From Isurus oxyrinchus (lineage: Eukaryota): DNA of 64,000 bases. The stretch is taken from assembly GCA_026770705.1 (NCBI GenBank), contig JANJGN010000017.1:12338001-12402000 (forward strand). Direction: 5' to 3'. Under the pieces are notes generated by a model that worked only from the letters and a program-made list of their open reading frames with translations, was not told the origin of the DNA and ran no database searches. The position numbers and the translations under genes are program-made. This document shows positions 1 through 58,984 of the stretch, in pieces. Each line of letters opens with the position of its first letter. The stretch's first letter is position 1.

Positions 1-128
1 GGGGATCAAAGGTTATGGGGAGAAGGCGGGAGAATGGGGTTGAGAAACTTATCAGCCATGATTGAATGGCGGAGCAGACTCGATGGGCCGAATGGCCTAA
101 TTTCTGCTCCTATGTCTTATGGTCTTAT
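1..128 (+). mobile_element. CR1 (HER1-type) LINE 3' tail, truncated by window edge
   Basis: ATCAGCCATGATTGAATGGCGGAGCAGACTCGATGGGCCGAATGGCCTA...CTCCTATGTCTTATGGTCTTA; same tail type as the other CR1 copies in the window. Confidence 0.8.
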
Positions 129-304
129 AAACAGGAAGCTATGAATAGAACCAAAGTATTGTATGCCTGATCTCACATTAAATACATCAGCTGACTGAGG
201 CTGCCAAAGTGTTCATCAGCCATTCAGATGGTGAACAGTTGGAAAGTGGAGACTTTGGGGAGCTTCAGGCAGCTGACACAGTTAAAATGTTCAGATCAGC
301 CTCT

Positions 305-480
305 ACAACAGCACCATCAATATGTTAAAATGTCCCAAGGCACTCCGCAGGAGTCACATTAGGAGATATTTGGTGTCAAAGTGATAGGTTTTAAGGAACA
401 TCTTAAAGGAGAGAGGGTGGGAGAGGTGGAGAGGGTTAGGGGGGCAATTGCAGAGCTTAGGACCTGGTGTGTAGCATCTA
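305..480 (-). mobile_element. Degenerate L2-type LINE 3' fragment
   Basis: GGTTTTAAGGAACATCTTAAAGGAGAGAGGG...GAGGGTTAGGGGG...CAGAGCTTAGG pattern recurs at 24400, 28470 and 43460. Confidence 0.5.
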
Positions 481-519
481 AGCTCTGCAATTGCCTCCCT
501 AAGTTTGTTTTATAGTGAT

Positions 520-910
520 GTGAGATGAGGGGTAAATGTTAACCAGGTCACAAGGGCCATCATGCTCTTCTTTGAAAAAGTGCCTTGGGATCTTTTACAT
601 TGAGCTGGGAGATCAGACTTGGTTTAACTTCTCATCCAAAAGATGTCACCTCTAACATTACAGCACTCCCTCAGTACTGCACAGGAGTGTCAGCCTGGAT
701 CCCATGCTCAAGTCTTTGGATCGAGAATGAAACCACAACTTTCTGAATCACTGAGCTATGCAAGTCTTTACTTTAAAATGCAGTGTTGGGATTAAAAAGA
801 AAGAACCAGCATTTATGTAGCACCTTTCACAGTCTCAGGACATCCCAAAACACTTTAAAGCCAATGAAGTACTTTTGAACTCTAGTTACTGTTATGATGC
901 AGGAAATGCT
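520..910 (-). mobile_element. DeuSINE (SacSINE1/AmnSINE1-like) fragments: body 520-760, tail 795-910
   Basis: CAGCACTCCCTCAGTACTGCAC..GTGTCAGCCT and TCTCATCCAAAAGA Deu-domain motifs; AGCCAATGAAGTACTTTTGAA tail motif. Confidence 0.7.
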
Positions 911-1419
911 GTATCTTTCATAATGTTCTTTTTGCTCACCAGACCTTAGAGACCTCAATATGTACAGATATGTAACATTTCTACTACTAATTGAAAATCT
1001 TCAACATCAATCAAATATCAGAAGATACATGGAAAAGATTTATCAAGATCTGGCAAGGCCTTAATCATTTGCCATGTGCCAGTCCTTTTCGATTGCCCTG
1101 TTTATACTGTTATCCAGTCCAGGTTTTTCTATTTACTGTTCTCACTTGTGCAGAAGTTTCTTGAAATGTGTTTTATTTTAATGAAAAAAGGATAGTTAGC
1201 TGGTTAATCTCCCCATCTCCTTTGAAATTCAGACATAAATACTGATGTCAAGCCCAGTCAATCAGAACCATGCATTCCAAGTATCAGACACGAATCTTAT
1301 TTTTACTTTAAGATTACATATTTTGACAGTAGTCATGCATGCCCAACAGTGACATTCCATTATGAGGATAAAGGCATGATGGAACCTCTACTGACATTGT
1401 GGTTGTCAAAAGTAAAAGA

Positions 1420-1810
1420 AAATATGTTACCTTAAAACTACATGATGCTTACATTTATTATGACATTCAACATTTCACAAAATGACTCCCTTATGGACTG
1501 CAAACTTGGCAGTCATCGACACCAGTACCACCCCATAAACAGTATTAAGATCAATGGCCAATGAAGCTGTTTTAGTGGTGTTGGTCGGGTGAGGGGGGAA
1601 TTGGCCAAGACACCAGGGGAACTCCTTTCTGTTAGAACTGCTGTGAAGTCCTTAATGTCACCTTCGTCAGCTCAATAACCAGACCTTGGTTCAATATCTC
1701 ATCTGATGAGGGGCACCTCTAATGTTGCAGCAGTCCTTCAGCATTGCACTGGAATGTCAACTTAGATCATGCAGTAAAACCTGACATAGCAAGTCAGAAT
1801 GCTCCCAACT
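1420..1810 (-). mobile_element. Degenerate DeuSINE
   Basis: TTGGCCAAGACACCAGGGGAACTCC, TCTCATCTGA..GCACCTCT, CAGCATTGCACTGGAATGTCAAC match other copies. Confidence 0.6.
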
Positions 1811-1922
1811 AAACCAGGCCATCACCTCATTTTCAATTATTATATGAATTTTACTAGTAAATAATATATATAAATTTTAATTATAAAATATGATTTAAAA
1901 AATAACTATTCTTAATTTAGGA

Positions 1923-2940
1923 TCATAGAAAGTTTACAACAAAGAAAGAGGCCACTTGACCCATTGTGCTGCACCAGTTGCTAAATGAGCCACCCAGTCT
2001 AATCCCACTTTCCAGCATTTGGTCCGTGACTCTGCAGGTTCCGGCACTTGAGGGTCCATATCCAGACGCCTTTTAAATGAGTTGAGGGTTTCTGCCTCTA
2101 CAACCCTTTCAGGCAGTGAGTTCCAGGCCCCCACAACCCTCTGGGTGAAAAACCTTTTCATCTCCCCTCTAACTATTCTACCAATCACTTTAAATCTATA
2201 TCCCCTCGTCACTGACCTCTCTGCTAAAGTAAATAGGCCTTTCCCATCCACTCTATCCAGGCCCCTCACAATTTTGTGCATCTCAATCAACTCTCCCCTC
2301 AGCCTCCTCTGTGCCAAGGAGAATAATCCCAGACTATCCAATCTTTCCCCATAGCTCAATTTTCCAGTCCTGACAACATCCTCATAAATCTCCCCTGTAC
2401 CCTCTCTAGTGCAATTACATACTTTCTGTAATGAGGTAACCAGAACTGCACACAGAACTCTAGTTGTGGCCTAACCAATGTTTTATATAGTTCCAGTATA
2501 ATCTTCCTGCTCTTATATTCAATGCCTCAGCTAATAAATGAAAGTATTTCATATGCCTTCTTAACCACCTGGTCAACCTGTCCTGCTACTTTTAGGGATC
2601 TATGGACATTACTCCAGGGTTTCTCACTTCCTCCACACCTCTCAGTATCCTCCCATTTATTGTGTGATCCTTTGCCTTGTTTGATCTCCCCAAATTCATC
2701 ATCTCACACTTCTCTGGGTTGAATTCCATTTGCCACTCTTCTGCCCATCTCACCAGTCTGTTGATATCTTCCTGCAGTCTAGAGCATCCTCCTCACTATA
2801 AACTGCGCAGCCAATTTTTGTGTCATCTGCAAACTTCTTGATCATTCCCCCTACATTTATGTCCAAATCATGAGCCCTGTGCAGCCCCACTGGAAAAAAG
2901 CCTTCCAGTCACAAAAAACATCCATCACCAATTACCCTTT
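1923..2940 (-). mobile_element. CR1 LINE 3' part (ORF2 C-terminus plus tail), with internal deletions
   Basis: ORF 1934-2359 reads YGERLDSLGLFSLAQRRLRGELIE...FFTQRVVGAWNSLPERVVEA, the canonical vertebrate CR1 ORF2 C-terminus. Confidence 0.9.
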
Positions 2941-3170
2941 GTGAATGTACCATGAATCTTTGGAATGCTCTACCCTAGAGGGTTGTGGATGCTCTTTTGC
3001 TGAATATATTTAAGGCTGGGATAGACAGATTTTTTTGTTCCTCAGGAAATGAAGGGATATGGGGAGCAGTTGGGTAAGCGGAGTTGAAGCCCAAGATCAG
3101 CCATGATCATATTGAATGGTGGACCAGGCTCTATGGGCCATTTAGTTACTCCTGCTCCTATCTCTTGTGT
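2941..3170 (+). mobile_element. CR1 LINE 3' end
   Basis: GAATCTTTGGAATGCTCTACCC..TGAATATATTTAAGGCTGGGATAGACAGATT...GATCAGCCATGATCATATTGAATGG. Confidence 0.8.
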
Positions 3171-4009
3171 ACAGTTTGCTTGAAGTTCCTCGAAGACTCA
3201 GTAGGTAAATAACACTTAGGGAGAGGTTTTGATTTGGGCACCAAAATGGGCATGATAAGGGTAACATGCTAATGGTGCCCACTCAACATGATAGTTGGGA
3301 GAACTGAACCACTTTTAAGTTCAGGTCCTTTAATACTTTCTTGGCGAGCTGCCAGGGGTGGGGCAAGAACAGGTCGGCAGCAGGCCAGAAGATTTTTGTG
3401 CAGAACTGCTCCTTACCCCACAAAAAATCTGAATAGAAACCCCCCCCCAAAAAATCTTATCTTTTGGGACAGGTGTCCAACAGTCCCTTTAAGATCGCTG
3501 GTCAGGTGCCCCATTGCCTGGAGAAATTAGATTGACTTGGGCTATTTGTGTTTCACCCATTTCTCCTTGAAAGCTGTAATCAGGGTCTTACCACAGGTAT
3601 TAAGCCTTTATGTGTATATCGAAACAGTCTCTCACCTACTTTAGGCGGAGTGTTGGAACCCATTTAAAGCCCTGCCTGATGGTTGCTATAGACAAGCCAA
3701 TAGATACACAAGGTCCCCGCCCAGGCTCTCAAATGCTGATTGCCTGTTGCTTGGGTGCATTGCCAAAGGTGTCATCATTCAGATGATCTCAGCTAGGACT
3801 GTGCCATGATTGGGTTCGGCATTGTTGGGCTACTTGTGGCTTGGGTAACAGAGAAGAGGATTGCCATTTCTGATCATTGTACAATTATCACTACTGGAAA
3901 GGTGTGAGTACGTGGATGTTGGGCAGAACAGGAATGACCTGCCATCACTGGCTAATTTTCACCATCAGGGTGAGTGCAAAACTGCCTGTTATACACCCTA
4001 CCAGTGTTT

Positions 4010-9410: not shown

Positions 9411-10791
9411 TTGGGCACTTGAACCTTTTGGAAAGTCACAGCTAGAGACAGATGCCTCCCTATTCCATGGATCTACATGTTGCTATTCTAATATGCTTTG
9501 ACACTCCGCTGCCTTGAGTCAGCAACAATTCTAACAAGGTCAAATATAAATCCGCCTAATTAACATTGATAATCTCTCTGCTCAACCCTAGCCCCAGAAC
9601 CCAAGCTCCCTGATCCCGCCTAACCTGGCTCCCACTTATTTCCTTATACTGTGGGAATGTTGTTGAGATGGCAACAGGAGAAGCTAAGCAGTTGCCAATC
9701 TAGAGAAACATCCAACAACAACAATAATGATTAACCTCTAATTGGCCTCATGACCTCTTCAGATCATCACCCTATGATGAGTATTGGACTAGTGGGCTTT
9801 AAAGAATAGACCAATAATTAAATATGACAAACATGCTCAACACCTCAGACTACCCCCAAGCAACAGGACAAGAGATTGGCTAGTATAATCTAATGTAAAA
9901 TACCACTTATTGGAACCTCCAATACCATATACTTGTGTATCTGTTTCTATAAAACATATAATAGGCTATTTGATACAGAACTGTGACACATATATATTCA
10001 TAATATAACAATTGTAGGTAGACTAAATAAATATAATAGCTGAATTGTTCCAGTGTCACACACATGCATAGTATAATGCATACAAATATCAGTAAGTGTA
10101 ACACTTTGACAGCAACATTATCCAGGAGTTACAAGAGTACTGCGAACACGGAATGGAGTAAATTTCATATATTAGCATTAAATCAAGATGCAACTTGTAT
10201 TGTCCAATAAAAAAGACAGATGTGACTACAGCAACACTGTTATAGCCTCGTGCAATAATTTTAGTAGAACATAATCTTTACACACTCTAGTAGGAAATTA
10301 CATACTCTCATGCAATACAGGTAAAGGTAGTTCACATTACTTCCTTGCTCACTGAATAGTGGTAGATGTTAAAGCACTCACACTGATTTTAAAAAAACAG
10401 GTTCTTTTTGTCTTTTTACAAACAGTTACACAAAGGTTAAAGTTCACATGCAAAAGACATTCAAATGAATGTCAAGATCAAAAGCCCAACTGCAGTGTCT
10501 AATACGTATTTTTTTTTATTTACTTACCAGAAATCCAATTAGCCACACCTGGATTCTCAATTAGTTGCACGTGGTTCATGGCTAATGTATTGAACAACAC
10601 TGGGTTAAACCATGTGATGTGGATTAGGAATTTAAGTGATAATTCCAGGTATCAAAGTAGTATTTCAGCATTCATTGGCAACAAATTAGCAGCTTGTTGG
10701 GAAGTGAAGTCAAAATGCACACCCATGCATGGAACACTAATGACTGACATTGTAAGGTAGAATTAACAAGGTTTTTTCTGTTACCCTTCAG

Positions 10792-11208
10792 ACTCCCAAG
10801 AAAGTGATTTCACCAGCACACCTCTGGACTGTGAAGTCTCTGTCTGGTCTTTATGGGGTCTCTGCAGCCACAGCTGTGGGATTGGCATCCGAGAGAGGAC
10901 GCGGTTCATCTTGCAGCATCCCGCCAACGATGGGGAGACCTGCCCAACCTTGCTGATCCAGGAAGAGTGCGAGGAATCCCCTTGTCCGACACCCGTGACA
11001 GACAGCAATGTCACTGTTTTAGACCCAGCAGAAGGAACTGCAAAGACACACTTTGAGGCAAACCTGAATGAAAGCATAGACTCTGATTTACTGGAAGAGC
11101 CCCTGTCACAGCACAACGAAACAGGAGGTGAACCAGAGAATACCACCGCATTAGCTCATCCTGACACAATGCGAGTCCAAGAAAGCAACCAGCTTCTGAA
11201 ATTCACAA
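10792..11208 (+). CDS. spon2: Spondin-2-like gene, exon with thrombospondin type-1 repeat and start of an acidic C-terminal extension
   Basis: Acceptor TTTTTTCTGTTACCCTTCAG; phase 1 joins the previous exon in frame; TPLDCEVSVWSLWGLCSHSCGIGIRERTRFILQHPANDGETCPTLLIQEECEESPC; donor A|GTAAGT at 11209 (phase 1). Confidence 0.92.
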
Positions 11209-11349
11209 GTAAGTTACTTTTGTCCTTCTTTCCTGGAGCAAATGCAGCAGGTTTTCTTGTTTCTGTACCTGCTGAAAGGGCACCAGCAAATATGAGAATG
11301 TGCATACCAAAAGGTTCAAACAGTGGCAAATTAGCTAACCCCCTACTAG

Positions 11350-11622
11350 ATTAAATTTGCAGGCAATTTGCACACAGCAAAGTCCCAGCAATGTGATAAT
11401 AACCAGATCATCATGGTTGAGGGATCCATATTGGCTAGGACTCGAGGGAAAATTCCCCCTGCCAATAACATATATCTGAGAGGACAGACAAGTCCCCACT
11501 TAATGTCTCATCTGAGAGGCAGCACCTCTGACTGTGCAGCACTGGAGTGTCAGCCTAAGTCTTATACTCAAGTCTCTGGAGCCACAGCCTTCTGAATCAA
11601 ATGTGAGAGTGCTGCTTATTGA
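11350..11622 (-). mobile_element. DeuSINE, directly abutting the LINE at 11629
   Basis: AATTTGCACACAGCAA, ATATTGGCTAGGAC, CAGCACCTCTGACTGTGCAGCACTGGAGTGTCAGCCTA. Confidence 0.7.
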
Positions 11623-11628
11623 ATCACA

Positions 11629-13975
11629 GGAACCAAGAAGAGGCAAAAACATACTTGGCCCCATCCTCATCAACCTGCCTGTCGCAGATGAATCTGTCCA
11701 TGACAGTATCGGTAGGAGTGACCACCGCTCAGTCCTTGTGGAGACGAAGTCCCAGCTTCACACTGAGAATACCCTCCTTCGTGTTGTGTGGCACTACCAC
11801 CATGCTAAATGGGATAGATTTCGAACAGATCTAGCAACTCATGATTGGGCATCATCAGGCACTGTTGACCATCAGCAGCAGCAGAATTGTACTCGAACAC
11901 AATCTGTAACCTCATGGCCTGGTATATCCACCACTCTACCATAACCATCAAGCCAGGGGATCAACCCTGGTTCAATGAAGAGTGCAGGAGGGCATGCCAG
12001 GAGCAGCACCAGGGATACCTAAAAATGAGGTGTCAACCTGGTAAATCTATAACACAGGACTATTTGCATGCCAAACAGCATAAGCAGCAAGCGATAGACG
12101 GAACTAAGTGATCCCACAACCAATGGATCAGATCTAAGCTCTGCAGACTTACCACATCTAGTTGTGAATGTTGGTGGATAATTAAACAACTCACTGGAGA
12201 AAGAGGCTCCACAAATATCCCCATCCTCAATGATGGAGAAGCCCAGCACATCAATGCAAAAGATAAGGCTGAAGCATTCGCAACAATCTTCAGCCAGAAG
12301 TGCCGAGTGGATGAGCCATCTCAGACTCCTCCAGAAGCCCCCAGCATCGCAGATGCCAGTCTTCAGCCAATTCGATTCATTCCATGTGATATCAAGAAAT
12401 GGCTGAAGGCACTGGATAGGGCGAAGGCCATGGGCCCTGACAATATTCTGGCAATAGTACTGAAGACTTGTGCTCCAGAACGTGCCAGGCCCCTAGCTAA
12501 GCTGTTCCAGTACAGCTACAACAGTGGCATCTACCTGGCTATGTGGAAAATTGCCCAGGTATGTCCTGTACACAAAAAGCAGGACAAATCCAACCCAGCC
12601 AATTACCACCCCATCGCTCTACTCTCGCTCATCAGTAAAGTTATGGAAGGGGTCATCAACAGTGCTATCAAGTGACTCAAGCTTAGCAATATCCCGCTCA
12701 CTGATGCCCAGTTTGGTTTCCGCCAGGGCCACTCAGCTCCTGACCTCATTACAGCCTGGGTTCTAACATGGGCAAAACAGCTGAACTCCAGAGGTGAGGT
12801 GAGTGTGACTGCCCTTGACATCAAGGCAGCATTTGACCGAGTGTGGCATCAAGGAGCTCTAGCAAAACTGAAGTCAATGGGAATCAGGGGGAAATCTCTC
12901 TGCTGGCTGGAGTCATACCTAGCACAAAGGAAAATGGTTGTGGTTGTTGGAGGTCAGACCTCTCAGCTCCAGGACATCATTACAGGACTTCCTCAGGGAC
13001 GTGTCCTCGGTCCAACCATCTTCAGCTGCTTCATCAATGACCTTCCTTCCATCATAAGGTCAGAAGTGGGGATGTTCACTGATATTTGCACAATGTTCAG
13101 CACCATTCACAACTCCTCAGATACTGAAGCTATCCATGTCCAAATGTAGCAAGACCTGGACAATATCCAGGCTTGGGCTGACAAGTGCCAAGTAACATTT
13201 GCGCCACACAGGTGCCAGGCAATGACCATCTCCAAAAAGAGAGAATACAACCATCGCCCCTTGATGTTCAATGGCATTACCATCACTGAATCCCCCACTA
13301 TCAACATCCTGGGGTTACCATTGACCAGAAACTGAACTGGACAAGCCATATAAATACTGTGGCTACAAGAGCAGGTCAGATGCTAGGAATCCTGTGACGA
13401 GTAACTTACTTCCTGACTCCCCAAAGCCTGTCCACCATCTACAAGGCACAAGTCAGGAGTGTGATGGAATATTCTCCACTTGCCTGGATGAGTGCAGCTC
13501 CAACAACACTCAAGAAGCTTGACACCATCCAGGACAAAGCAGCCCACTTGATTGGCATCACATTCACAAACATTCACTCCCTCCACCACCGATGCACAGT
13601 AGCAGCAGTGTGTACCATCTACAAGTTGCACTGCAGGAATTCACCAAGGCTCCTTCAACCTGCGACCACTACCATCTAGAAGGACAAGGACAGCAGATAG
13701 AAGGGCAGCAGATAGATGGGAACACCACCACCTGGAAGTTCCCCTCCAAGTCACTCACCATCCTGACTTGGAAATATTTCACCGTTCCTTCACTGTCGCT
13801 GGGTCAAAATCCTGGAACTCCCTCCCTTACAGCACTGTGGGTGAACCTTTACCACATAGACTGCAGCGGTTCAAGAAGGCAGCTCATCACCACCTTCTCA
13901 AGAACAACTAGAGATGGGCAATAAATGCTGGCCCAACCAGCGAAGTCCACATACCGTAAATGAATTAAAAAAAAC
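11629..13975 (+). mobile_element. 5'-truncated APE-RT LINE (CR1/Jockey group, possibly Zenon-like), sense orientation in a spondin intron; disrupted ORF
   Basis: Translated pieces VWHYHHAKWDRFRTDL, MGPDNI..VLKTCAPE, WKIAQVCPVHKKQDKSNPANY, QFGFR, ALDIKAAFDRVWH, PQG.VLGP..F..FINDL, IYKAQVRSVMEYS; 3' tail GGGCAATAAATGCTGGCC...A-run. Confidence 0.92.
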
Positions 13976-14577
13976 ATTCGCCTGAGTGCATCTTATATCA
14001 GTCTAGAGGTTAGCTTCTACTACCCTGCCAAATTCTGATTCGACCAATCTCATCAACTTTAACCATGTAGCCATTCTTCGTGCACAAGTTTTGCCAGGAG
14101 TGAAATCAAGCTACTAAACCGCTGGGGGGGTGCAGCCAATTCTGAATTTGTCCTCAGCCGATATCTGTAAAATTACGCTTTCAGCAGGAGTCACTTAATA
14201 ATAATGGAGAGTAGGAACCACAGGGGTCTGAAACCAATTATTAGCACACCCAAGCCTGGGTTGGCTCACTCATCAGGGATTGAAATTGAAACAGGAAGAC
14301 TCTGGTTTTCAGGGTTGGCTTCTACACTGGGCAACGTATTAACCTATTGAGCTTTCAGGGGAAGCAAAGTAGAGTTTTTAACAAACATTTATCTTTTACT
14401 ATAGTGACTGCTGATCTAGAGTCTTGTTGACTTTAGGCCCTGGGAACTGAATAGTCAGATTTTAGCTTGATAAGCAAGGACAATCAAAGCTAAAAATATT
14501 AAAAATGTAAAGAAAAACTGTAACTCTGAAATAAGTTTGTAGAAATGCACAGCGAATCCACCAGCACCTGAAAAGGG

Positions 14578-18830: not shown

Positions 18831-19387
18831 CAACTGCATGACATTATCATAACATAACCAGGTTCCAAGCACTTGCTTCCTCACTTATATACACAGTCCT
18901 GCCATTGAAGTTACATCTACCCATTACTAGCCCAGGAAATGCAGGATGAAATATCCTGCTGTGCTGTATGATGGATATTGTGCAAAGAGGGTTATGACTG
19001 TATAGTGTTTGACAGGTTATTAAGTACTCAACAGGTGAGGTTTGTCCATTTAGTTAACTAGTGTTGAGCGATTTTAATTAGGACTATTGTTCACCTTTCA
19101 AACTGACCCTGCAGTGAGGCGAGAATGGAATAATTACACCTTTCAAATGGAAAATGCGCCCCAATCAATATTAGTCAGATAAATGAACACCATGGCATCC
19201 AGCACTGAATAGAGAATTGTGCGTTTTCACGGGCAATAGCCCTCAAATAGTGAGAAGCTTGCAGCAGCTTGTGATTGAAATGCCTGAAATCAAATCTGTC
19301 TGTAAAATGTTGGATCGTGATTTGTTTGTCTTACAGCCCAGCGTTTAATGAGTTGCTTGTAATATGATGAGTAATAGATTCACTATT

Positions 19388-20855
19388 CACAAATGCCCTT
19401 CAAGGAAAAACATTTTCTGCCTACACTTGGTCTGGCTTCCATGTGACTCCAGACCCCCAGCAATGCAGTTTACTCTTAACGGCCCTCTGAAATGACCTAG
19501 CAAGCCACTCAATTGTATTGACCCGCTGCGAAGACAAGAACAATAAACTCTGACTGACCACCTGGCTTGACCTCTGCACTGGGAACAACAAAGCCACATT
19601 CAGTCCAGTCAACCCTGCAACACACATCTCACTAACATCTAGGGACTTGTGCCAAAATTGGGAGAGCTGCACCTCACATTAGTCAAGCAACAGCCTGGTA
19701 TAGTCATAATGATAGAATCATACTTTTCAGTCAATGTCCCAGACTCCTCCATCACCATCCCTGGCTATGTCTTGTTCTACTGGCAGGACAGACCCATCAG
19801 AGGTGGTAGCACAGTCCAGAGGGTGTGGCCCTGGGTGTCTTCGGCATTGACTTTGGACTCCATGAAGTCTCATGGCATCAGGTCAAACAATTCTTCTGAT
19901 TACCATCTACCATCTTCCCGTAGCTGATGAACTAGTACTCCTTTATGTTGAACACCACTTGGAAGAAGCACTGAAGTGCCTAGAATCTCCTCTAGATAAA
20001 GGACTTCAATGGTCATCAACAACAGTGGCTTGGTAGCACCACTGTTGACTAAGCTGGCCGATTCCTGAAGGACGTGATCACTAGACTGGGCCTGCAGCAG
20101 GAGGTGAGGGTACCAACAAGAAGGAAAAAGCTATTTGACATTGTCCTCACCAATCTACCTGTCACAGATGTACCTGTCCATGACAGTGTTTGTAGGAGTG
20201 ACCACCGCACAGTCCTTGTGGAGATAAAGTCCTGGCTTCACAATGAAGACACCCTCCATCATATTGTGGACACTAGCATTATATTGAAAGATTCAGAACA
20301 AATCTAGAAGCTCTAAATTGGGCATCCATGAGGCACTGTGGGCCATCAGCAACGACAGAATTGTATTCTACCACAATCTATAACTTCATAGCCAGACAAA
20401 TCTTTCATTCTAACATTAGCATCAGGCCAGGGACCAACCCTGGTTCAATGAAGAGCTCAGAGGACAATGTCAGGAGCAGCACTACAGTACCTGAAAATGA
20501 GGTGTCTACCTGGTGAATCTGTAACATGGGATTACACACATGTTACTCAGCAGAAGCGGAATGTAACAGGCAGCCAATTGATTAGGTAAAAGCTCAGCAG
20601 CCCTATGACATCCATTTGTGGCGTGGACAATTAAACAACTAACAGGAGGAGGAGGCTCCATGAACATCCCATCTTCAATGATAGTGTGTGAGGCATGTGA
20701 GTTTGCAGCCATCTTCAGCCAGAAGCTCCGACTGGTGGTCCATCTCAGCTTCCCACTGAGGTTCCCACCATCACAGAAGACAGTCTTCATCTAATTTGAT
20801 TCATTCCACCTGGTATAAAATGCCTGAGTGCACTTTGATATAGCAAAGGCTACGG
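19388..20855 (+). mobile_element. 5' portion of the SINE-headed APE-RT LINE (SINE body, endonuclease, linker); 3'-truncated
   Basis: Begins with SINE-body ATGTGACTCCAGACCCCCAGCAATG..CCCTCTGAAATGACCTAGCAAGCCACTC, then PKLGEL..VKQQPGIVIMIESY (APE). Confidence 0.85.
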
Positions 20856-20857
20856 TG

Positions 20858-23745
20858 TTTTTTAATTCATTCACAGGATGTGGCTGTCGCTGGCTAGGCC
20901 AGGAATTATCGCCCATCCCTAGTTGCCCTTGAGAAGGTAATCGTGAGCTGCCCTCTTGAACCGCTGCAGTCCATGTGGTGTAGGTACAGTGCTGTTAGGG
21001 AGGGAGGGAGTTCCAGGATTTTGACCCAGTGACAGTGAAGGAACGGCGATATATTTCCAAGACAGGGTGATGAGCGGCTTGGAGGGGAACTTCCAGGTGG
21101 TGGTGTTCCCATTTATCTGCTGCCTTTGTTCTTTTAGATGGTAGCAGTCCTGGATTTGGAAAGTGCTGTCTATTGGGCCTTGGTGAGTTCCTGCAGTGAT
21201 ACAAACTGCTGCCACTGTGCGTCAGTGGTGGAGGGAGTGAATGTTTGTGGATGGGGGGGCCAATCAAGTGGCTGCTCTGTCCTGGATGGTGTTGAGCTTC
21301 TTAAGTGTAGCAGCTGCACTCATCCAGGCAAGTGGAGAGTATTCCATCGCACTCTTCACTTGTGCCTTGTAGATGGTGGACAGGCTTTGGGGAGTCAGGA
21401 AACGAGTTATTCGCTGCAGGATTCCTAGGCTCTGACCTGCTCTCGTAGCCACAATATTTATATGGCTTGTCTAGCTCAGTTTCTGGTCAATGGTAACCCC
21501 AGGAAGTTGATAGTGGGGGATTTGGCAATGGTAATGCCATTGAATGTCAAGGGGCAACAATTAGAATCTCTCTTTTTGGAGATAGTCATTGCCTGGCACT
21601 TGAGTGGCACGAATGTTACTTGCCACTTGTCAGCCCAATCCTGGATATTGTCCAGGTTTTGATGCACTGGGACATGGACTGCTTCAGTATCTGAGCAGAC
21701 ATGAATGTCGCTGAACATATGAATAAGGGGGAGGAGTGGGTTATTCGGCCCCTTGACCTTACTCTGCCATTTAATAAGATAATGGCTGATCTGATAGTAA
21801 CCTCAAATCTGCATCCCGCCTACCCCAGATAACCTATCACCCCCCTTGATTACCAAGATTCTATTCACCCCTGCCTTAAAAATATTCAAAGACTCTGCTT
21901 CCACTGACTTTTCAGGAAGAGAGTCCCAAAGACTCATGACCTTCTGCATGAAGAAATTTCACCTTATCTCCATGTTAAACAGGCGACCCCTTATTTTTAA
22001 ACAGTGAACCCTAGTTCTAGATTCTAGAACATTGTGCAATCATCAGTGAACATCTTCACTTCTGACATTATGGAAGGTCATTGATGAATCAGCTGAAGAT
22101 GGTTGGGCCTGGGACACCACCCTGAGGAACTCCTGCAGTGTCCTGGAACTGAGATAATTGATCTCCAATGACCACAACCATCTTCCTTTGTGCTAGGTAT
22201 GACTCTGACTAGCGGAGAGTTTTCCCCCAGACTCCAGTTTTCCTCGGGCTCCTTGATGCCACATTCGGTCAAATGCTGCCTTGATGCCAAGGGCAGTCAC
22301 TTTCACCTCACCTCTTGAGTTCAGTTCTTTTGTCCATGTTTGAACCAAGGCTGTAATGAGGTCAGGAGCTGAGGAGCCCTGGTGGAACCCAAACTGGGTG
22401 TCAGTGAGCAGGTTATTGCTGATAAGTGCCGCTTGATGGCACTGCCGATGACACCTTCCATCACTTTGCTGATGATCGAGACTAGAATGATGGGGTGGTA
22501 ATTAGCTGGATTGGATTTGTCCTGCTTTTCATGTATAGGACATACCTGGCAATTTTCCACATCGTCAAATAGATGCTAGTGTTGCGGCTGTACTGGAACA
22601 TATTGGCTAGGGGTGCAAATTTTCAGTACTGTTGCTGGAATGTTGTCAGGGTTCATAGCCTTTGCAATATCCAGTGGCTTTAGCCGTTACTTGGTATCAC
22701 ATGGAGTGAATCGAATTGGCATTCACGGCTGGATGTACCAGGACTGCAGAGCTTAGACCTGATTCATTGTTTGTGGGATCGCTTAGCTCTATCTATCACT
22801 TGCTGCTTACGCTGTTTGGCATGCAACTAGTCCTGTGTTCACCAGGGTGACACCTCATTTTTAGGTATGCCTGCTGCTACTCCTGGCATGCCCTCCTGCA
22901 CTCTTCATTGAAGCAGGGTTGATCCCCCAGCTTGATGGTAATGGTGGAGTGGGGCATATGCCTGGCCGTGAGGTTACAGATGATGATTGTATATAATTCT
23001 GCTGCTAGTGCCACACAACACAATGGCGGGTACCCTCAATTTGTAAACGAGGCTTTGTATGGACAAGGACTGTGCGGTGGTCATTCCTACTGATACTGTC
23101 ATGGACAGATGCATCTGCAACAGGTAGATTGGTGACAACGAGGTCAAGTAGGTTTCCCCCTCTTATTGGCTCCCTCACCATCTGCTACCGACCCACTCTG
23201 GCAGCTATATACTTTAGGACTCGGCCAGCTTGGTCAGTAGTGATGCTACCAAGGCACTCTTGGTGATGGACATTGAAGTCCCCCACCCAGAGTACAACCT
23301 GTGCCCTTGCCACCCTCAGTGCTTCCTCCAAGTGGCGTTTAACTTGGAGGAGCACTGATTCATCAGCTGAGGTGTGGCAGTAGGTTTCCTTGCCTGTGTT
23401 TGGCCTGATGCCATGAGGCAATGTTGAGGACTTCTAGGACTATTCTCTCATGACTGTATATCATTATGCCTTTACCTCTGGTGTCTCACCAGCAGGACAT
23501 ACCCAGGGATGGTGATGGTGGAACTTGAGACATTGCCTGTCAGGTATGATTTCATGAGTATGCCTATGTCAGGCTGTTGCTTGACTAGCCTGTGAGACAA
23601 CTCTCCCAATTTTGGCACAAACCCACAGAGGTCTGTGGGACTGTAAGGAGGACTTTACAGGGTCGACAGGGCTGGGTGTGGCCTAGGTCAATGCAAGATG
23701 CTCTGTCCAGCTTCATTTCTTTTATTAGACTTTGTCACTGTTTGA
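20858..23745 (-). mobile_element. APE-RT LINE of the same family, near full length with deletions; interrupted by a CR1 insert
   Basis: Tail ATTCATTCACAGGATGTGG at 20865; RT pieces QVCPIHEKQDKSNPANY and STIYKAQVKSAMEYS; EN piece VLWVGDFNVHHQE. Confidence 0.9.
21719..22026 (-). mobile_element. CR1 3' tail inserted into the LINE
   Basis: Flanked by duplicated GAACAT (21713-21718 and 22027-22032); host LINE sequence is continuous across the insert. Confidence 0.8.
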
Positions 23746-23749
23746 TACA

Positions 23750-23920
23750 ATTATCACAATGCTGTTTGTGGGAGCCTGCTGTGCACAAATTGGTTGCCAT
23801 GTTTTGCACATTACAACAGTGACTACACTTTAAAAAAACTTCATTTGCTGTAAAGTGCTTTGGGACATTCTGGGGCCATGAAAGGCACTACAGAAATGCA
23901 AGTTCTTTCTTTTTCTTTGC
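23750..23920 (+). mobile_element. DeuSINE 3' tail
   Basis: GCTGTTTGTGGGAGCCTGCTGTGCACAAATTGG..AAAGGCACTACAGAAATGCAAGTTCTTTC. Confidence 0.7.
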
Positions 23921-25319: not shown

Positions 25320-26400
25320 TCCTCAGGCATGGTCACAACAACTAAATGCCAGAGAGATGAGAATTGTTGCCTTTGACTTCAAAGGCAGCATTCAATCATG
25401 GAACAAAACTAAGGTCAATGAGGTGAGGTGAAACAGAAAATCCTCCTTTTTTTGGAGCCATACCTGACACAGAAAGAGATGGTTGTGGTTGTCAGATGTC
25501 AATCATCAAAAGATCAAAACATCATTGAAGGAATTCTTCAGTGAAGTGCCTTTGGTTCAATCATCTTCACTGATTCATCAATAATTTTTCATCTATTATA
25601 ACTTCAGGACGAGGGCTGTTCACTATTGATTTCACAGTGTCAAGCTCCATTCACAATTCTTTCATTAATGCAGTACTGCAGTCCATAACAGCTTACAGCA
25701 TGATTTGACAACATCCAGTCTAAATCTGACAAATAACATGGAAGATTCCTGCAACATAAGTACCAGGTAACGAGCATCACAAACAGGAAAAAGTCTCTTC
25801 ACTTCCCTTTATCTTCAACAGTACCACCATCAACACATTGTGGGTTGGCATTTACTGGAAGCTTAACTGGACCAGCGTTGTAACGTTGTAACTACAATCA
25901 TGCAACAGAGACTAGGTACCCAGCAATGAATGGCTCGCATTTTGACCCCATAAGACCTGTCCACTATCTTCAAAACTCAAGTAAGAAGCGTGATGAAATA
26001 TTTACCACCTGTCTAACTAGTGCTGCCAGTATAACACTCAAACTGTCCAGGAAAAGCACTCCATTTGATCAGTGTCCCCGACATTGGACTCCGTATCCAC
26101 CACCTCCATCACTGGCACACTGTAGGTACAATGTGCACCAATTACAGTTTCCAATGCAGTAACTCACTCAGCTTACTTTGATCACCCAGTCTTGCAACCT
26201 CTATTGCTATGAACAACAAGGGCAACAATAATGTGGAAATACCTGAATTCTCCTCCAATTCACAGGCCATCCTAACTTAGTTAGATATCACTCTTCCACC
26301 ATTGTCACTGAGTCAAAATCCTGGAATATTTGCCTTAACAGCTGAGTTGGGAGTACCACAAGACAAGCAGCAGTTCAAGGAGGAGTCCCATCACCATTCT
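25320..26400 (+). mobile_element. Old, heavily diverged copy of the APE-RT LINE (RT domain to 3' region)
   Basis: Colinear remnants: WSQQLNAREMRIVAFDFK, GATGGTTGTGGTTGTC, AACTGGACCAG, CTGTCCACTATCTTCAA, GAGTCAAAATCCTGGAA. Confidence 0.7.
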
Positions 26401-26754
26401 CCACCTCTCTCTCCTCCTTTAAGATCTTCCTTAAAACTGACCTATTCAAGCTTTAGGTCATCGGCTCCAATATCCCCTTCCTTGGCACAGTGCTATATTG
26501 TCTTGCTCTGCAGTTTGCACAGTATCTTGCATCTTGCCTATATTCTCAAGTTCGTACACAGTTGCTTCCTCAATCTCCAAGAAAGTTGGATTGGCCAGTT
26601 CATACAATAAGTACAATCCAACCCCACCCATTCACAGAGTCACTTGCTCCATTTTTGGGTGGGTGATGGGCGAGCTGTTCACATTAATCATGCTACTTAT
26701 AAACAGCTAGTCATTGGGGAGAGTGGAAAACTTGGCATTTGGGGCAGAAATTGG

Positions 26755-37934: not shown

Positions 37935-38437
37935 TAATGTGCCAAGGGATATGGCGCTAATGTGGATAAATGGAGTTGGAGGACAGACTTTTAAAAATTC
38001 TTTCATGGGTTCCGGGCATCATTGGCTAGGCCAGCATTTATTGCCCATCTCTAATTGCCCTCGAGAAGATGATGGTGAGACGCCTGCAGTCCATGTGGTG
38101 TGGGTACACCCACAGTACTGCTAGGGAGGGAGTTCCAGGATTTTGACTGAAATCAGATATGACCTAATTCACGGAATCACAGAGTAGTTACAACACAGAA
38201 GGAGGCTATTCAGCCCGTCCTGTCAGTGCTGGCTCTCAAACAATTCACCTAGGGCCACTCTCTTGCCTTCTCTCCTTAATTGAATGGTGGAGCACGATTG
38301 GGGGAATGAATGGCCAACTCCTGTTCCTATGAATGATGGAGAAAGCTCAGGAGCTGACTGACCTACTTCTGTTCCTATGAATAGTGGAGCAGGCCCAAGG
38401 AGCTGAATGTCCTACTCCTAACCCTATGTTCCTATAA
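37935..38437. mobile_element. Nested cluster: + CR1 tail interrupted by a - APE-RT LINE tail (37990-38148) and a - CR1 tail (38170-38278), ending in a triplicated tail unit
   Basis: CCAGCATTTATTGCCCATCTCTAATTGCCC; three GAAT..TGGAG..TGA.TG.CC.ACT.CT..T.CCTAT units at 38281-38435. Confidence 0.7.
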
Positions 38438-40625: not shown

Positions 40626-43425
40626 TTTTTTAAAAAATTCATTCACAGGATGTGGGCTTTGCTGGCTGGGCCAGCATTTATTGCCCATCCCTAGTTGCCC
40701 TTGAGAAGGTGGTGGTGAGCTGCCTTCTTGAACCACTGCAGTCCATGTGGTGTAGGTACACCCACAGTGCTGTTAGGGAGGGAGTTCCAGGATTTTGACC
40801 CAGCGACAGTGAAGGAACGGCAATACATTTCCAAGTCAGGATGGTGAGTGACTTGGAGGGGAACTTCCAGCTGGTGGTGTTCCCATCTATCTGCTGCCCT
40901 TGTCCTTCTAGGTGGTAGTGGTTGTGGGTTTGGAAGGTGTTGTCTAAGGAGCCTTGGTGAATTCCTGCAGTGCAAGTTGTAGATGGTACACATTGCTGTT
41001 ACAGTGCATCGGTATGGAGGGAGTTAATGTTTGTGGATCTGGTGCCAATCAAGTGGGCTGCTTTGTCCTGAATGGTGTCAAGCTTCTTGGGAGCTGCACT
41101 CATCCAGGCAAGTGGGAAGTATTCCATCACACTTCTGACTTGTGCCTTGTAGATGGTGGACAGGCATTGGGGAGTCAGGAGGTGAGTTACTCGTTGCAGG
41201 ATCATTAGCCTCTGACCTAATCTTGTAGCCATAGTATTTATATAGATAGTCCAGTTCAGTTTCTGGTCAATGGTAACCCCAGGATGTTGATAGTGAGAGA
41301 TTCAGTAATGGAAATGTCATTGAACATCAAGGGGCGATGGTTGGATTCTCTCTTGTTGGAGATGGTCATTGTCTGACACTTGTGTGGCACAAATGTTACT
41401 TGTCACTTGTCAGCCCAAGCTTGGATATTGTCCAGGTCTTACTGCATTTGGATATGGACTGCTTCAGTACCTGAGGAGTCGCAAATGGTGCTGAACATTA
41501 TGCAATCATCAGCGAACATCCCCACTTCTGACCTTATGATAGAAGGAAGGTCATTGATGAAACGGCTGAAGGTAGTTGGGCCAAGGACACTACCTTGAGG
41601 AAATCCTGCAGTGATGTCCTGGAGCTGAGATGACTGACCTCCAACAACCACAACCATCTTCCTTTGTGCTAGGTATGACTCCAACCAGCAAAGAATCTTC
41701 CCCCTGATTCCCATTGACTTCAGTTTTGCTCAGGCTCCTTGATGCCACACTCGGTCAAGGGCAGTCAGTCTCACCTCACCTCAGGAGTTCAGCTCTTTGG
41801 TCCATGTTTGAACCAAGGCTATAATGAGGTCAGGAGCTGAGTGACCCTGGCAGATCCCAAACTGGGTGTCAGTGAGCAGGTTATTGCTAAGCAAGTGCCA
41901 CTTGATAGCATTGTTGATGACCCCTTCCATTACTGATGATCAAGAGTAGACTGATGAGGCAGTAATTGGCCGGGTTGGATTTGTCCTGCTTTTTGTGTAC
42001 AGGACATACCTGGGCAATTTTCCACATAGCTGGATAGATGCCAGTGTTGTAGCTGTACAGGAACAGCTTGGCTAGGGGTGTGGCAAGTTCTGGAGCACAA
42101 GTCTTCAGTACTATTGCCGGAATATTGTCAGGGCCCATAGCCTTTGCACTATCCAATGTCTTCAGCCGTTTCTTGATATCAAGTGGAGCGTATCAAATTG
42201 GCTAAAGACTGGCATCTGTGATGCTGAGGACCTCCGGAGGAGGCCGAGATGGATTGTCCACTCGGCACTTCTGGCTGAAGATTGTAGCAAATGCTTCAGC
42301 CTTACCTTTTGCACTGATGTGCTAGGCTCCTCCATCATTGAGGATGGGGATATTTGTGGAGCCTCCTTTTCCAGTGAGTTGTTTCATTGTCCACCACCAA
42401 TCACGACAGGATGTGGCAGGACTGCAGAGCTTAGATATGATCCATTGGTTGTGGGATCGCTTAGCTCTGTCTATCACTTGCTGCTTATGCTGTTTGGCAT
42501 GCAGATAGTCCTGTGTTATAGCTCAACCAGGTTGACACCTCATTTTTAGGTATGCCCACAGCGCCAGTCTTGAGATGCTAGATCTGTTTAAAATCTATCC
42601 CACTTAGCATAGTGGTAGTGCCACACAACATGATGGAGGGTATCCTCAATGAAGGTGGAACTTCGTCTCCTATTGGTACTGTCCTGAACAGATGCATCTG
42701 TGGCAAGCAGGTTGGTGAGGACGTGGTCAAGTATGTTTTTCCCTCTTGTTGGTTCCCTCACCACCTGCTGGAGACCTAGTCCTTTAGGAATCGGCCAGCT
42801 TGTTCAGTAGTGGTGTTACCGAGCCACTCTTGGTGATGGACATTGAAGTCCTCCACATTCTGCACCCTTGCCACCCTCAGTGCTTCCTCCAAGTGATGTT
42901 CAACATGGGGGAGCACTGATTCATCAGCTGAGGGAGGGCGGTACATGGTAATCAGCAGAAGATTTCCTTGCCCATGTTTGACCTGACACTATGAGACTTC
43001 ATGGGGTCCGGAGTTGATGTTGAGGACTCCCAGAGCAACTCCCTCCTGGCTGTATACCACTGTGCCACCATCTCTGCTGATGGGATGTTGATGGTGGTGT
43101 TTGAGATATTATCTGTAAGGTATGATTCTGTGAGGATGACTATGTCAGGCTGTTGCTTGACTAGTCTGTGAGACAGCTCTCCCAATTTTGGCACTAGCAC
43201 CCAGATGTTAGTAAAGGAGGACTGTGCAGGGTTGACAGGGCTGAATTTTCCGTTGTTGTTTCTGGTGCCTAGGTCAATGCCTGGTCGTCCGTCCAGTTTC
43301 ATCCCTTTTTTGCGACTTTGTAGCGGTTTGTTACAACTGAATTCGAATTCCACCATCTGCCATGGCGGAATTTGAATTGGATTCCCAGAGCATTACCCTG
43401 GGTCTCTGGATTATTACTCCAGAGA
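40626..43425 (-). mobile_element. Near full-length SINE-headed APE-RT LINE (internal deletions, disrupted ORF)
   Basis: ATG at 43302: MKLDGRPGIDLG..TNIWVLVPKLGELSHRLVKQQPDIVILTESYL (APE); RT FPQGSVLGP..MFADD; tRNA-like head remnant at 43345-43425; complete 3' tail. Confidence 0.93.
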
Positions 43426-48738: not shown

Positions 48739-49621
48739 AGGCCTCATCCTAGTTCAACCTCTCATCTACCACAATGGAGTGTCAGCCTCCATTACTTAAC
48801 AAAGTCTCTGCATGGGGCTTGATCTCATAACTTTTTAACTCAGAAACAAGAGAGCTGCCATTGTGGGAGATGTGACTCCAAAGCCTTACAACAGAGGTTT
48901 TTAAAGTTTCTAGTATGGGATTCACATTCACCTCTGACAAATGTGACAAGTTTATGATCTTCGTTGTCACCGAGATTGAGACATCCACTCAGTTGCCTCT
49001 GCTCGTTTCCCAATTCCCCAGTTTAAAATTCCTCATGCTTCATGACTTTACCTCTCCCTATCTCTGTAAGCTTCCTGAACTCTACAATCCCTCAGAGCTC
49101 TTCATTCCTTCTGTGTACCTTTCCGACTTGGCTCACCCCCCCATTATTGGCGGTGCCTAAGGCCAGCCAAGCCCTCTGTCTAAATTTTACCATCAACTGT
49201 TGTCCTCCCCTTAAAACCTGCCAAGTTTGAAAACCTATGGTTTAGCTGTGAGTAGATGTGTATAAAATTGTATGTCCTAGTAGTACCAGGAGGGGAGAAG
49301 GCACTTATATAATTTTGGAGCCTCTCTTGCTGACAGCAGATATCAGGAATCAGCACACCCGGAAATATCCAACAGGTGGGTTGGCATAAATTTGGAAAAT
49401 TATCTTGCCAAAAACAGAAATGCGCCTTTGATGTAAAGAATTAGTTGCAGCTTCGTGTCATGGAGCTGAAATATGGATTCATCCCCTGGAACAAGAAGGG
49501 TGACAGGTGGGAATTCATCTATCAAAAAGGGACTGATTAAAATTGTCCATTCCAGCATCCCCATGGACTGGGCACGCGGAGTTCCCTCCTGATCCACACT
49601 GGAAGCAGTTAATCCTGGCAT

Positions 49622-49905
49622 TTCTTTTTTAATTGACTCTCAGATGTGGACGTTGCTGGCAAGTCCGGTATTTATTACAATCACTAGTTGCCCTTGAGAA
49701 GGTGATGACAGGCCTTCTTCTGACAATGCTGTTGGGTTGGGAGTTCCAGGGTTTAGATCCAGTGACAATGAAGAAAAATCAATATATGTCCAAGTCAGGG
49801 TGATGTGTGATTTTGAAGAGAACTTGGAGGTAATGGTGTGTTCCCATGCTTTTGTTGCCCTTGTCTTTCTAGATGGCAGAGTTTGCGTGTTTGAAAAGTG
49901 CTATC
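49622..49905 (-). mobile_element. APE-RT LINE 3' tail fragment
   Basis: GATGTGGACGTTGCTGGC..CTAGTTGCCCTTGAGAAGGTG..CCAAGTCAGGGTG. Confidence 0.75.
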
Positions 49906-51302: not shown

Positions 51303-52015
51303 AAAAGGAAAAAGAAAGACTTGCTTTTAAACAGCGCCTTTCATAACTTCAGGACATCCCAAAGCGGTTTACCGTCACTGAAGTGCTTTTGAAGTGTAGT
51401 CACTGTTGTAATGTCGGAAACGCAGCAGACAATTTGTACACAGCAAGGTCCAACAATCTCATGACCTCTGCCACCTAAAAGGTCAAGGGCAACAAGCATA
51501 TCGAAGCCCCACCACCTCCAAGCTCTACTCCAAGTCACACACCATCCTGACTTGGAAATAAATCGGTTGTTTCTTCATCATCGTTGGGTCTAATGGAACT
51601 TCCTATCTAAAGTCATTGTGAGTGTACCTACACCACATGGACCACAGTGTAGCAAGAAGGTGGTTCACCACCATCTTCTCAAGGGTAATTGGGGATGGAC
51701 AATAAATACTGGTCTTGCCAGCGATGCCCACATCCCGAGAATTAATAAATAAAAAAGAAAACTGCAATGCAGTAATGTTGGTTGAGGGATAAACTTTGGC
51801 CCGGGCATCAGGGAGAACTCTCCTGCTCATCTTCGAAATAGTGCCACGGGATCATTACATCCACCTGAAAGGACAGAAGCAGCCATTGTTTAATACCTCA
51901 TCTGAAAATCAGCACCTCCAACAGTGCAGCACTGAAGTGTTGGCCTAGATTTTGTGCTCAAGTCCCTGGAGTGGGAATTGAACCTTTGACCTTGTGAGTC
52001 AGAGCCACGGCTGAT
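51303..52015 (-). mobile_element. DeuSINE interrupted by a + strand APE-RT LINE tail (about 51457-51760)
   Basis: SINE halves are colinear around an insert ending GCCAGCGATGCCCACATCCCGAGAATTAATAAATAAAAAA. Confidence 0.8.
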
Positions 52016-52407
52016 AAAACTGAAGCTTGGCAGCCTGATCGACTTCATACATAAAGCTGAACGCAGTCTCACCGTTGAAACAGGGCCTCCTGAAGCAACC
52101 TCCCTCTGCCATATTGAAGCTTGATCACCTCACTTGATAAAAATGGCTCGGAGGGTTTTTGGTTATTGGTCGCACTTCAATGACATCTGAGGTGTAACCG
52201 AATCTGTTGGACATTTTTCTTCTTCTTATTCTCCCTGGGAATATACATACAGCAGAATTCCCATGGGGAATGTCATGCACCTTCAAAGTAAGACCAAGGA
52301 AAAGACTATAAACTGCATAGCAGTTCTGCAGGGAAAAACAACAAAAAAACCCCCAACCCTTTCCTAACAAGACTCTTCAGACCTGCCAGAGTTTAACTTG
52401 AGTTTGC

Positions 52408-52725
52408 ATTTTTTTTTTATTCTTTCATGGGGTCTGAGCATCATTGGCAAGACCAGCGTTTATTGCCCATCTCTAGTTACCCTTGAGAAGGTGGCAATGA
52501 GCTGCCTTCTTGAACTGCTGCAGTCCATGTGGTGTAGGTACAGCCACAGTGCTGTTAGGGAGGGAGTTCCAGGATTTTGACCCAGCGACAGTGAAGGAAT
52601 GGTGATATATTTCCAAGTCAGGCTGGTGAGTGGCTTGGAGGGGAACTTGCAGGTGGTGGTGTTCCTGTGTACCTGCTGCCCTTGTCCTTCTAGGTGGTGG
52701 AGGTTGCGGGTTCAGAAGGTGTCGT
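52408..52725 (-). mobile_element. APE-RT LINE 3' tail fragment
   Basis: Poly-T, then ATTCTTTCATGGG..CCCTTGAGAAGGTGG..GGAGTTCCAGGATTTTGACCCAGCGACAGTGAAGGAA. Confidence 0.85.
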
Positions 52726-53008
52726 CAAAAGGTACTGTTTATTCCTTCCCAAATTGGACTTCTGTTTGCAATAGATGTCACTCGTACTGCGCATGTACCT
52801 GGTACAAAAACAGTCAATGTGCTGCCCTCAAGAATTACAATGTCTTGTTAGGCATCACTGCAGTTTTCATTTAGTCCGATGAGCTTCACATTTGAACAGA
52901 AGTTTACGAAGCTGCAGGCAGTGAGTGGAGAATCAGCATTGCTACTCTCAACCCACATTTCCAGATGCTATCTCTAACTCAATGATACTATGACTACTGT
53001 AAAGTAGC

Positions 53009-55312: not shown

Positions 55313-55640
55313 GGGGAGGTGATGGCATAGTCATATTGTTGTTAGACTAGTAATCCAGAAACCCAGGGTAATGCTTAACCAGGTCAACTGGGTTTGAATC
55401 TGACCACAGCAGATGGTGGAATTTGAATTCAATAAAAATCTAGAAAAGCCTATGATGACCATGAAACCATTGCCGTAAAAACCCATCTGGTTCTCTAATG
55501 TCCCTTAAGGGAAGGAAATCTGCTGGCCTACATGTGATGCCAGACCTATGGTAATATAGTTGACTCTTAACTGCCTCTGAACAAGGACAATTAGGGATGG
55601 GCAATAAGTGCTGGCCTAGCCAGCGATGTCCACATTGCTG
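55313..55640 (+). mobile_element. Complete tRNA-derived SINE (MetaSINE/SlmI-like) ending in the APE-RT LINE tail
   Basis: A-box-like TGGCATAGTCA, B-box-like GGTTTGAATC; body GTAAAAACCCATCTGGTTCTCTAATGTCCCTTAAGGGAAGGAAATCTGC; tail AATTAGGGATGGGCAATAAGTGCTGGCCTAGCCAGCGA. Confidence 0.8.
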
Positions 55641-58979: not shown

Positions 58980-58984
58980 TGCAG

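Follow-up and report, generated by a model that had tools for sequence, protein, structure and literature searches.

Depletion of sense-strand T-runs in an elasmobranch Zenon LINE with a tRNA-like head

The lack of T-runs in the sense strand of the LINE family described here is real, family-wide and specific. The family was encountered in a window of 64,000 nucleotides of Isurus oxyrinchus DNA (contig JANJGN010000017.1, positions 12,338,001 to 12,402,000 of the forward strand), in which a first-pass annotation had flagged a copy at 11629-13975 (+ strand). Sequence comparison identifies it as an abundant elasmobranch Zenon LINE of the CR1 group, present here as a decayed copy. Full-length transcription by Pol III is the simplest single cause of two features of the family, a sense strand purged of T-runs and a candidate promoter of tRNA type lying exactly at the 5' end, and Pol III probably makes the full-length element RNA. 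That the same RNA would also serve as message has about an even chance.

Family architecture and copies in the window

The 4.98-Gb genome was searched with the 5' end of the copy residing at 55972-58979, and many collinear copies were returned; 39 were fetched, and most of these are bounded by one common head and one common tail. Majority sequences were built from 23 full-length copies and from a pile about 45 deep. Sequences w20, w40, L039, L057 and L068 were dropped from the first alignment as misjoined or duplicate, and L043, L057, L070, L220, L280, L320, L333 and L001-L030 from later piles as duplicates; only segments of at least 500 nt that reached an identity of 74-80% were kept. The family majority measures 3270 nt and features an A box (12-22), a B box (75-87), a leader extending to about 292, and a single stop-to-stop frame of about 974 codons with endonuclease (APE) and RT catalytic motifs, the RT domain matching PF00078. 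At the 3' end AATAAA precedes a GAAT repeat, after which a short A-tract closes the element. No upstream ORF (ORF1) was found in 29 loci retrieved with an endonuclease piece. Neither an intact nor a very young copy is present among those fetched, the best being 96.6% identical to the majority, and target-site duplications are not convincing in any of 10 full-length copies. Searches for diverged sister families in the same genome, made with old copies and a distant protein, only found the same family again. In an RT tree of 119 mostly unnamed entries, none a named Zenon, the family is placed near proteins of 930-970 aa, at 37-38% identity.

The 5' sequence of the family matches the first 400 nt of published elasmobranch Zenon consensus sequences (CarCar_, ScyCan_, RhiTyp_, SquAca_ and HypSab_Zenon; PMC13343379), this portion including the same head, leader and ORF start. 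Since consensus sequences from five elasmobranch species share head and leader with it, the family is already known. As described in the same source, the elasmobranch elements are 2.9-3.3 kb long, lack ORF1 and end in an A-tail, as here, and all Zenons surveyed lack ORF1 and carry a poly-A tail. Old L2 and Zenon fragments also reside inside duplicated C2H2 zinc-finger gene clusters (L380-L409). The public RNA runs are assembled contigs, in which depth tracks copy number; 0.31 of the words of the family are found in one run (X10) annotated as a coral metatranscriptome, a sample which probably included fish material.

The flagged copy is 5'-truncated, spans family positions 934-3270 plus the A-tail, contains the RT domain, and is 92% identical to the family majority. 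Its terminal part (13909-13975, +) is made up by a stop codon (13909-13911), AATAAA near 13920, a GAAT-type repeat and the A-tail. The copy sits in an intron, just downstream of, and on the same strand as, an exon (10767-11354, +) coding for a thrombospondin type-1/spondin-like domain (PF19028, PF00090). A near full-length, head-bearing copy at 55972-58979 (- strand) covers family positions 4-3103, the final ~165 nt being absent, with the A box of the tRNA-like head at 58961-58971 and the B box at 58895-58907 (both -). A copy with a partial head and internal deletions is found at 40626-43425 (-), and a 5'-truncated one at 20858-23753 (-), split by a CR1 3' fragment (21718-22027). In an older copy, 74% identical (19386-20855, +), the endonuclease is attached to the same 5' body, and a very old fragment (66%; 25436-26401, +) belongs to the Zenon family or to a sister family. 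A 3' fragment of the family lies at 52395-52729 (-), and 3' fragments resembling it at 37996-38147 (-), 49620-49905 (-) and 51454-51756 (+).

Sense-strand T-runs in the family and in other LINEs

No run of four or more T (T4+) is found over the 2.35 kb of the flagged copy, exactly as the first-pass annotation had counted, and internal A4+ runs are 10, plus an A8 tail. Its counts for the sister copies were reproduced as well. In the 20858-23745 copy the sole sense-strand T4 (21878) falls within the CR1 insert; in the 40626-43425 copy a single internal run, at 42590, is accompanied by a T6 (40632) immediately before the A-tail; the 55972-58979 copy has three (56100, 57454 and 58561), all private. 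The longest T4-free interval on the + strand of the window (11252-14088, 2837 nt) contains the flagged copy, and window DNA outside the family has 5.9 T4 per kb. The second-longest T4-free stretch (58859-60561, 1.7 kb) is C-rich, and is located outside the family.

The family majority (~45 deep) has no T4 run, and only six T3 runs, in 3270 nt. The absence of T4 departs from mononucleotide shuffles (expected 4.3, p 0.011-0.017), is borderline against own-codon shuffles (expected 2.4, p 0.05-0.07), and is unremarkable against dinucleotide shuffles (expected 1.5-1.6, p 0.17-0.20). T3 runs are depleted under all three nulls, being 6 vs. 21.9 expected (mononucleotide), 6 vs. 11.5 (dinucleotide) and 4 vs. 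12.5 (own-codon), with p values of 0.017-0.028 when dinucleotides, and <0.004 when codons, are kept fixed. The absence of TTTT by itself is weak to modest evidence; the avoidance of T-runs at the TT and TTT level is the stronger signal, and a strong one. The stricter shuffles absorb the very effect under test. The observed/expected ratio (o/e) of TT is 0.70 in the family majority, and that of TTT, 0.22, is the lowest of 56 non-CpG trinucleotides. TAT is also low (2/15), as is TA (o/e 0.62), the latter being equally low in Tx1. Windows with 4 T in 5 nt occur 0.6 times per kb in the family vs. 5.9-11.8 in controls. On the antisense strand T4 runs are about as frequent as expected (14 vs. 15.3). 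Phe codons always contribute TT; Phe makes up 2.1% of the ORF protein, the lowest value among 19 related proteins (2.6-5.4% in the others), conserved Phe residues being kept at 12 of 15 positions. The count of TTT vs. TTC among Phe codons, which had been suggested as a check, is 4/15.

Majority sequences of six families of the same genome were used as controls. Tx1A (5.2 kb, T fraction 0.211) has 10 T4 and a TTT o/e of 1.37, Tx1B (7.0 kb) 29 and 1.62, a young CR1 (2.2 kb) 6 and 1.38, an older CR1 (2.0 kb) 10 and 1.28. The L2 family, usable only as a 685-nt 3' end, since the first piles had caught segmental duplicates and the Tx1 tail and were discarded, has 6 T4 and an o/e of 0.98. The least favourable control is a Penelope-like RT fragment (L203:100-1900; 1.3 kb, depth 4), with 3 T4 and an o/e of 0.56. 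A search for a Rex1 control with Pfam PF09004 gave no match. All six controls carry TTTT (1.9-8.8 per kb; TTT o/e 0.56-1.62), and depletion comparable to that of Zenon is seen in none of the Tx1, CR1, L2 and Penelope-like sequences. If the ratio is pooled over all controls except L2, the chance of finding no T4 in the family amounts to 0.0016; with the Penelope-like ratio it is 0.13. The first-pass annotation had cautioned that A-rich sense strands have fewer T-runs anyway; A-richness does not account for the depletion, because the T fraction of Tx1A (0.211) is close to that of the family (0.203), yet Tx1A has 10 T4 in 5.2 kb. T-run depletion is strand-specific and family-specific. The spacer immediately preceding tRNA-Lys(TTT) genes is matched by the 3' sequence of Tx1B, whose copies are in tandem (L351 and L352 arrays; L187-L198), as in target-specific Tx1 elements.

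LINE stretches of at least 1 kb from metagenomes were also monitored, 10 of 80 loci being left out (under 1 kb matched). The TTT o/e of the Zenon ORF (0.17) is below that of all 70 distant stretches (minimum 0.46, median 1.13). Three of the 70 also have no T4 (1.1-1.5 kb, low T). Among the closest database proteins, surrounding DNA was available for P0015 (L100); the closest relative with DNA in the set has 14 T4 vs. 14.3 expected. Two T-rich metagenome stretches have T4 far below expectation (L138, 1 vs. 11.6; L165, 8 vs. 27.5); a tRNA-like head was not found in either. A compositional accident, by which a lineage historically low in T and TT would lack TTTT by chance, is very unlikely. It is in line with the dinucleotide-preserving shuffles, 17-20% of which have no T4, and with the lower TTT of GC-richer distant LINEs (o/e 0.46-0.77 in four of the seven with T at most 0.24). 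Against it stand the depletion of T3 with dinucleotides or codons fixed, the position of TTT as the single rarest non-CpG word, and the recovery of T4 runs as copies age.

This recovery was followed over 136 aligned segments. T4 runs per kb are 0.11, 0.38, 0.40, 0.47 and 0.80 in segments of falling identity to the majority (from 94-100% to 74-80%), and nearly all are private. T4 density climbs with copy age, indicating that the T4 runs of the copies arose after insertion; the majority is T4-free in each of four age bands (58, 73, 41 and 25 segments). The suggestion that runs in the sister copies are post-insertion mutations is borne out in general, with one reservation. The site at 42590, where CpG decay of TTTCG makes T4 and breaks the frame, is the only strongly recurrent internal T4 of the family (19 of 77 copies), and gives no independent test, since the same decay also ends the frame. 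A weaker recurrent site is found in the head (6/45). Rare synonymous C>T changes making a T3+ run have a rate of 0.040 vs. 0.045 elsewhere, so that the mutation process poses no barrier to T-runs. Variants present in at least 15% of copies create T3+ at 0 of 53 sites, compared with 11 of 471, a difference in the expected direction but on too few sites for significance. For shared variants the pN/pS ratio is 0.20, for rare variants 0.71, and the frame is under purifying selection in source lineages. The earlier claim that a coding sequence was selected for Pol III read-through is supported in part. The family-specific purge of T-runs speaks for it, and neither of the two outcomes that the first-pass annotation had named as refuting was obtained; the zero count of T4 alone, from which the claim had started, is not significant once TT depletion is fixed.

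T-runs may also be avoided for a reason acting on an ordinary Pol II mRNA, such as cryptic splice acceptors, U-rich 3'-processing elements or a nuclease cutting at UU and UA, of which RNase L is an example; the head would then be a captured SINE piece acting as Pol II promoter, insulator or 5' RNA structure. This alternative is rather unlikely. The low level of both UA and UU is in line with it, and translation would be easier with a capped RNA, but the six other intron-less retroelement families, exposed to the same pressures in the same genome, keep T4.

The head, the SINE partner and the ends of the element

The head was tested by searching the genome with a 421-nt endonuclease piece only. 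Twenty-nine loci were found, two being mutual duplicates. Twenty-two continue collinearly into the 5' region shared with a SINE, and 9 get to positions 1-12; the other 7 end at 339-491, with unrelated or rearranged flanks. An alternative shared 5' sequence is found at none of the 29 loci. Among LINE-linked heads, a sample enriched for heads, 34 of 56 begin at positions 1-3, and the 5' end is fixed about 11 nt upstream of the A box. Loci found by their endonuclease, and fixed 5' ends, mark the head as part of the source element rather than as a repeated chance fusion; the SINE-type head proposed by the first-pass annotation is present and integral to the LINE. The spacing of the A and B boxes is workable for a Pol III type-2 promoter, with the start just before the A box. 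That the 5' end lies where transcription from such a promoter would start speaks against a Pol II mRNA.

The likeness of the head to a tRNA resides in its two boxes and hairpins. Neither ARAGORN nor Rfam calls the head as a tRNA, and alignment to three host isotypes (tRNA-Cys, -Lys and -Val) is weak (p 0.01-0.016). Folding of the head gives z of -0.39 to 0.76, that of the whole leader z of -2.45, the latter from a majority that is deletion-biased. Two hairpins lie between the boxes (family head 30-72), the second resembling a duplicate of the first; judged by eye on the published SquAca and RhiTyp starts, the pairing of the second seems to be preserved between species although its letters differ. 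By-eye inspection of the first 400 nt of published sequences reveals the same head, and no T4, in seven Zenons of five elasmobranch species; three hagfish/coelacanth Zenons have no such head, and T4 is present. In the heads of the five species both A and B boxes are kept and the spacer is variable, a further point against a Pol II role of the head. Among the metagenome relatives, ARAGORN, applied to 36 of the 80 loci, detected no tRNA head, and no pair of boxes was found by A/B box pattern in the 80, most of which are incomplete at the 5' end. The head body was also compared with the core part of the Deu domain of SacSINE1, and does not match it.

The ~330-nt SINE found at 55313-55635 (+), and at 29 further loci, is the entire 5' region of the LINE (1-292) fused to its final ~65 nt. 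The left break falls just ahead of the ATG-GCC-TAG of the leader, the right one about ten bases before the stop, and the positions of both breaks define the SINE as the LINE minus its ORF. In contigs of public runs (L348:1186-1310) the depth of the leader body exceeds that of the head and of the ORF several times, and its flanks differ, which suggests that more SINE families share it; either the SINE or the LINE may have come first.

The SINE-shared 5' region is closed by a conserved ATG-GCC-TAG (58710-58718, -) within ATG-GCC-TAG-CAA (58718-58702, -; family 294-310), in the majority in frame with the long ORF. Its ATG is the only in-frame one before the endonuclease and has a strong context; of the 52 copies that could be classified, 28 have TAG as the third codon and 5 have GAG. 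The leader has about ten other short ATG frames, and a later ATG opens a frame of 35 codons which overlaps the endonuclease start out of frame. ATG-GCC-TAG is found by eye in six of the seven published elasmobranch starts, its frame to the ORF not being kept in all. The CAA after the stop is readthrough-like, and the GAG allele belongs to a subfamily; the motif also matches at 12 of 13 positions a motif in the SINE-type 3' tail, and fits the A-box pattern. An in-frame ATG in a second majority, seeded from L327, was discarded as an artefact of the deletions of that copy.

AATAAA is retained in 47 of 61 tails. Together with the A-tail common to Zenons, it fits a Pol II mRNA equally well, and a further AATAAA at family position 116 might favour losing U-rich downstream elements if Pol II were at work. 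Of 45 LINE-length copies with a classifiable tail, 10 bear a T4+ run there; the nine youngest bear none. The tail T-run was rejected as a built-in terminator, and is at most a later gain, because the youngest copies lack it.

Transcription by Pol III, known systems and meaning

If Pol III, whose usual products are short non-coding RNAs, makes the element RNA, it would transcribe all 3.3 kb from the internal A/B-box promoter, and the RNA would be both message and template. TFIIIC and TFIIIB would load the enzyme on the head. Source copies gaining an internal TTTT would give truncated RNAs, devoid of the 3' tail needed for reverse transcription, and would leave no descendants. Pol III would terminate at whichever T-run it meets first beyond the tail, be it one of the flank or one growing at the T/A junction, and AATAAA may permit polyadenylation, as in mammalian T+ SINEs. 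In the weakest of these steps, the uncapped RNA would be translated by a non-standard start, either by readthrough of ATG-GCC-TAG, from a non-AUG codon, or by a shift from the 35-codon overlapping frame. R2 elements also feature a LINE RNA not made by Pol II and translated without a cap, as proposed here for Zenon; their RNA results from Pol I co-transcription inside rDNA and ribozyme release, and has no tRNA head.

For human Pol III, termination is most efficient at 4 T, and internal U-runs modulate the process (10.1101/2025.10.17.683076), results obtained with the human, not the shark, enzyme. According to a review-type statement, SINE length is limited to 100-700 bp by Pol III processivity (PMC10886601), and this counts against a 3.3-kb Pol III product. 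Missing ORF1 was considered as support for Pol III (after PMC2666806) and dropped; it carries no weight, because ORF1 is missing from all the Zenons surveyed in PMC13343379.

Pol III might make the copied RNA, which would explain the purge, and the protein come from separate Pol II transcripts reading through copies that reside in host genes; relatives of the element would then mobilise it in the manner of a giant SINE. Such a division of labour is improbable. It accounts for the missing clean start codon as well as for the T-run data, and Pol III RNAs are reported to retrotranspose with ORF2p in trans, without ORF1p (PMC2666806); yet the purifying selection in source lineages (pN/pS 0.20) is easiest to understand if the copied RNA is the translated RNA. 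With Pol III transcription from end to end, elasmobranch Zenon would be a self-sufficient coding retrotransposon, an "autonomous SINE" with a T-run purge reaching amino-acid choice, an uncapped RNA, a non-standard start, and a SINE made by ORF deletion. Chances for and against this whole picture seem evenly balanced.

LINEs and other non-LTR elements are stated to use Pol II, SINEs Pol III (PMC10886601, PMC5786205). In the literature searched no Pol III-transcribed coding LINE was found; Repbase/Dfam entries and subscription papers may already note the head. The main text of PMC13343379 contains neither "tRNA" nor "polymerase", and head, SINE partner and T-run purge are undiscussed there. The LINE family is known; its head and its T-run purge were not found remarked in the literature searched.

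Several known elements share single features with it, as far as the published descriptions go. TRNA-derived SINEs (SINE2), notably the mammalian T+ SINEs B2, Dip and Ves, have in common with Zenon an A/B-box head, AATAAA near the end and an A-tail, and in both, older copies show a growing T-run where the A-tail begins (PMC8466645). The Pol III RNAs of T+ SINEs are polyadenylated, and their terminators lengthen while the A-tail shortens. Unlike them, Zenon is ten times longer, codes for protein, and lacks a terminator of its own in the youngest copies. RTE-1_DAn and relatives are also LINEs reported with a tRNA-like sequence, but of the RTE clade, a comparison made by description rather than by sequence (PMC5786205). 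Cassandra, Helenus and Ajax (TRIMp3; PMC10886601) are likewise non-SINE retroelements with a Pol III promoter derived from a small RNA; they differ in being LTR-type, non-coding and at most 1.3 kb long. Bipartite non-autonomous derivatives of RTE and Vingi LINEs (PMC5786205) consist, like the SINE described here, of a 5' part and a 3' end; the published model adds the tRNA head after deletion, whereas here the coding LINE is already headed. The SacSINE1/DeuSINEs of sharks are tRNA-headed with a tail of the CR1 group, as here, but the short published Deu, Meta and UCON3 motifs, compared in place of the SacSINE1 sequence, have 5-8 mismatches at best in the head (PMC5499810).

The T-run purge provides a cheap sequence test to find similar elements in repeat libraries. 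If the Pol III reading holds true, the Pol III products of a vertebrate would include a natural mRNA of 3.3 kb, beyond the length and coding range known for this polymerase, and there would be a natural example of such an RNA being translated independently of a cap. LINEs and SINEs would no longer be set apart by their use of Pol II and Pol III, and an origin of SINEs in one step, by deletion of the ORF from a headed LINE, would replace the addition of a head by template switching.
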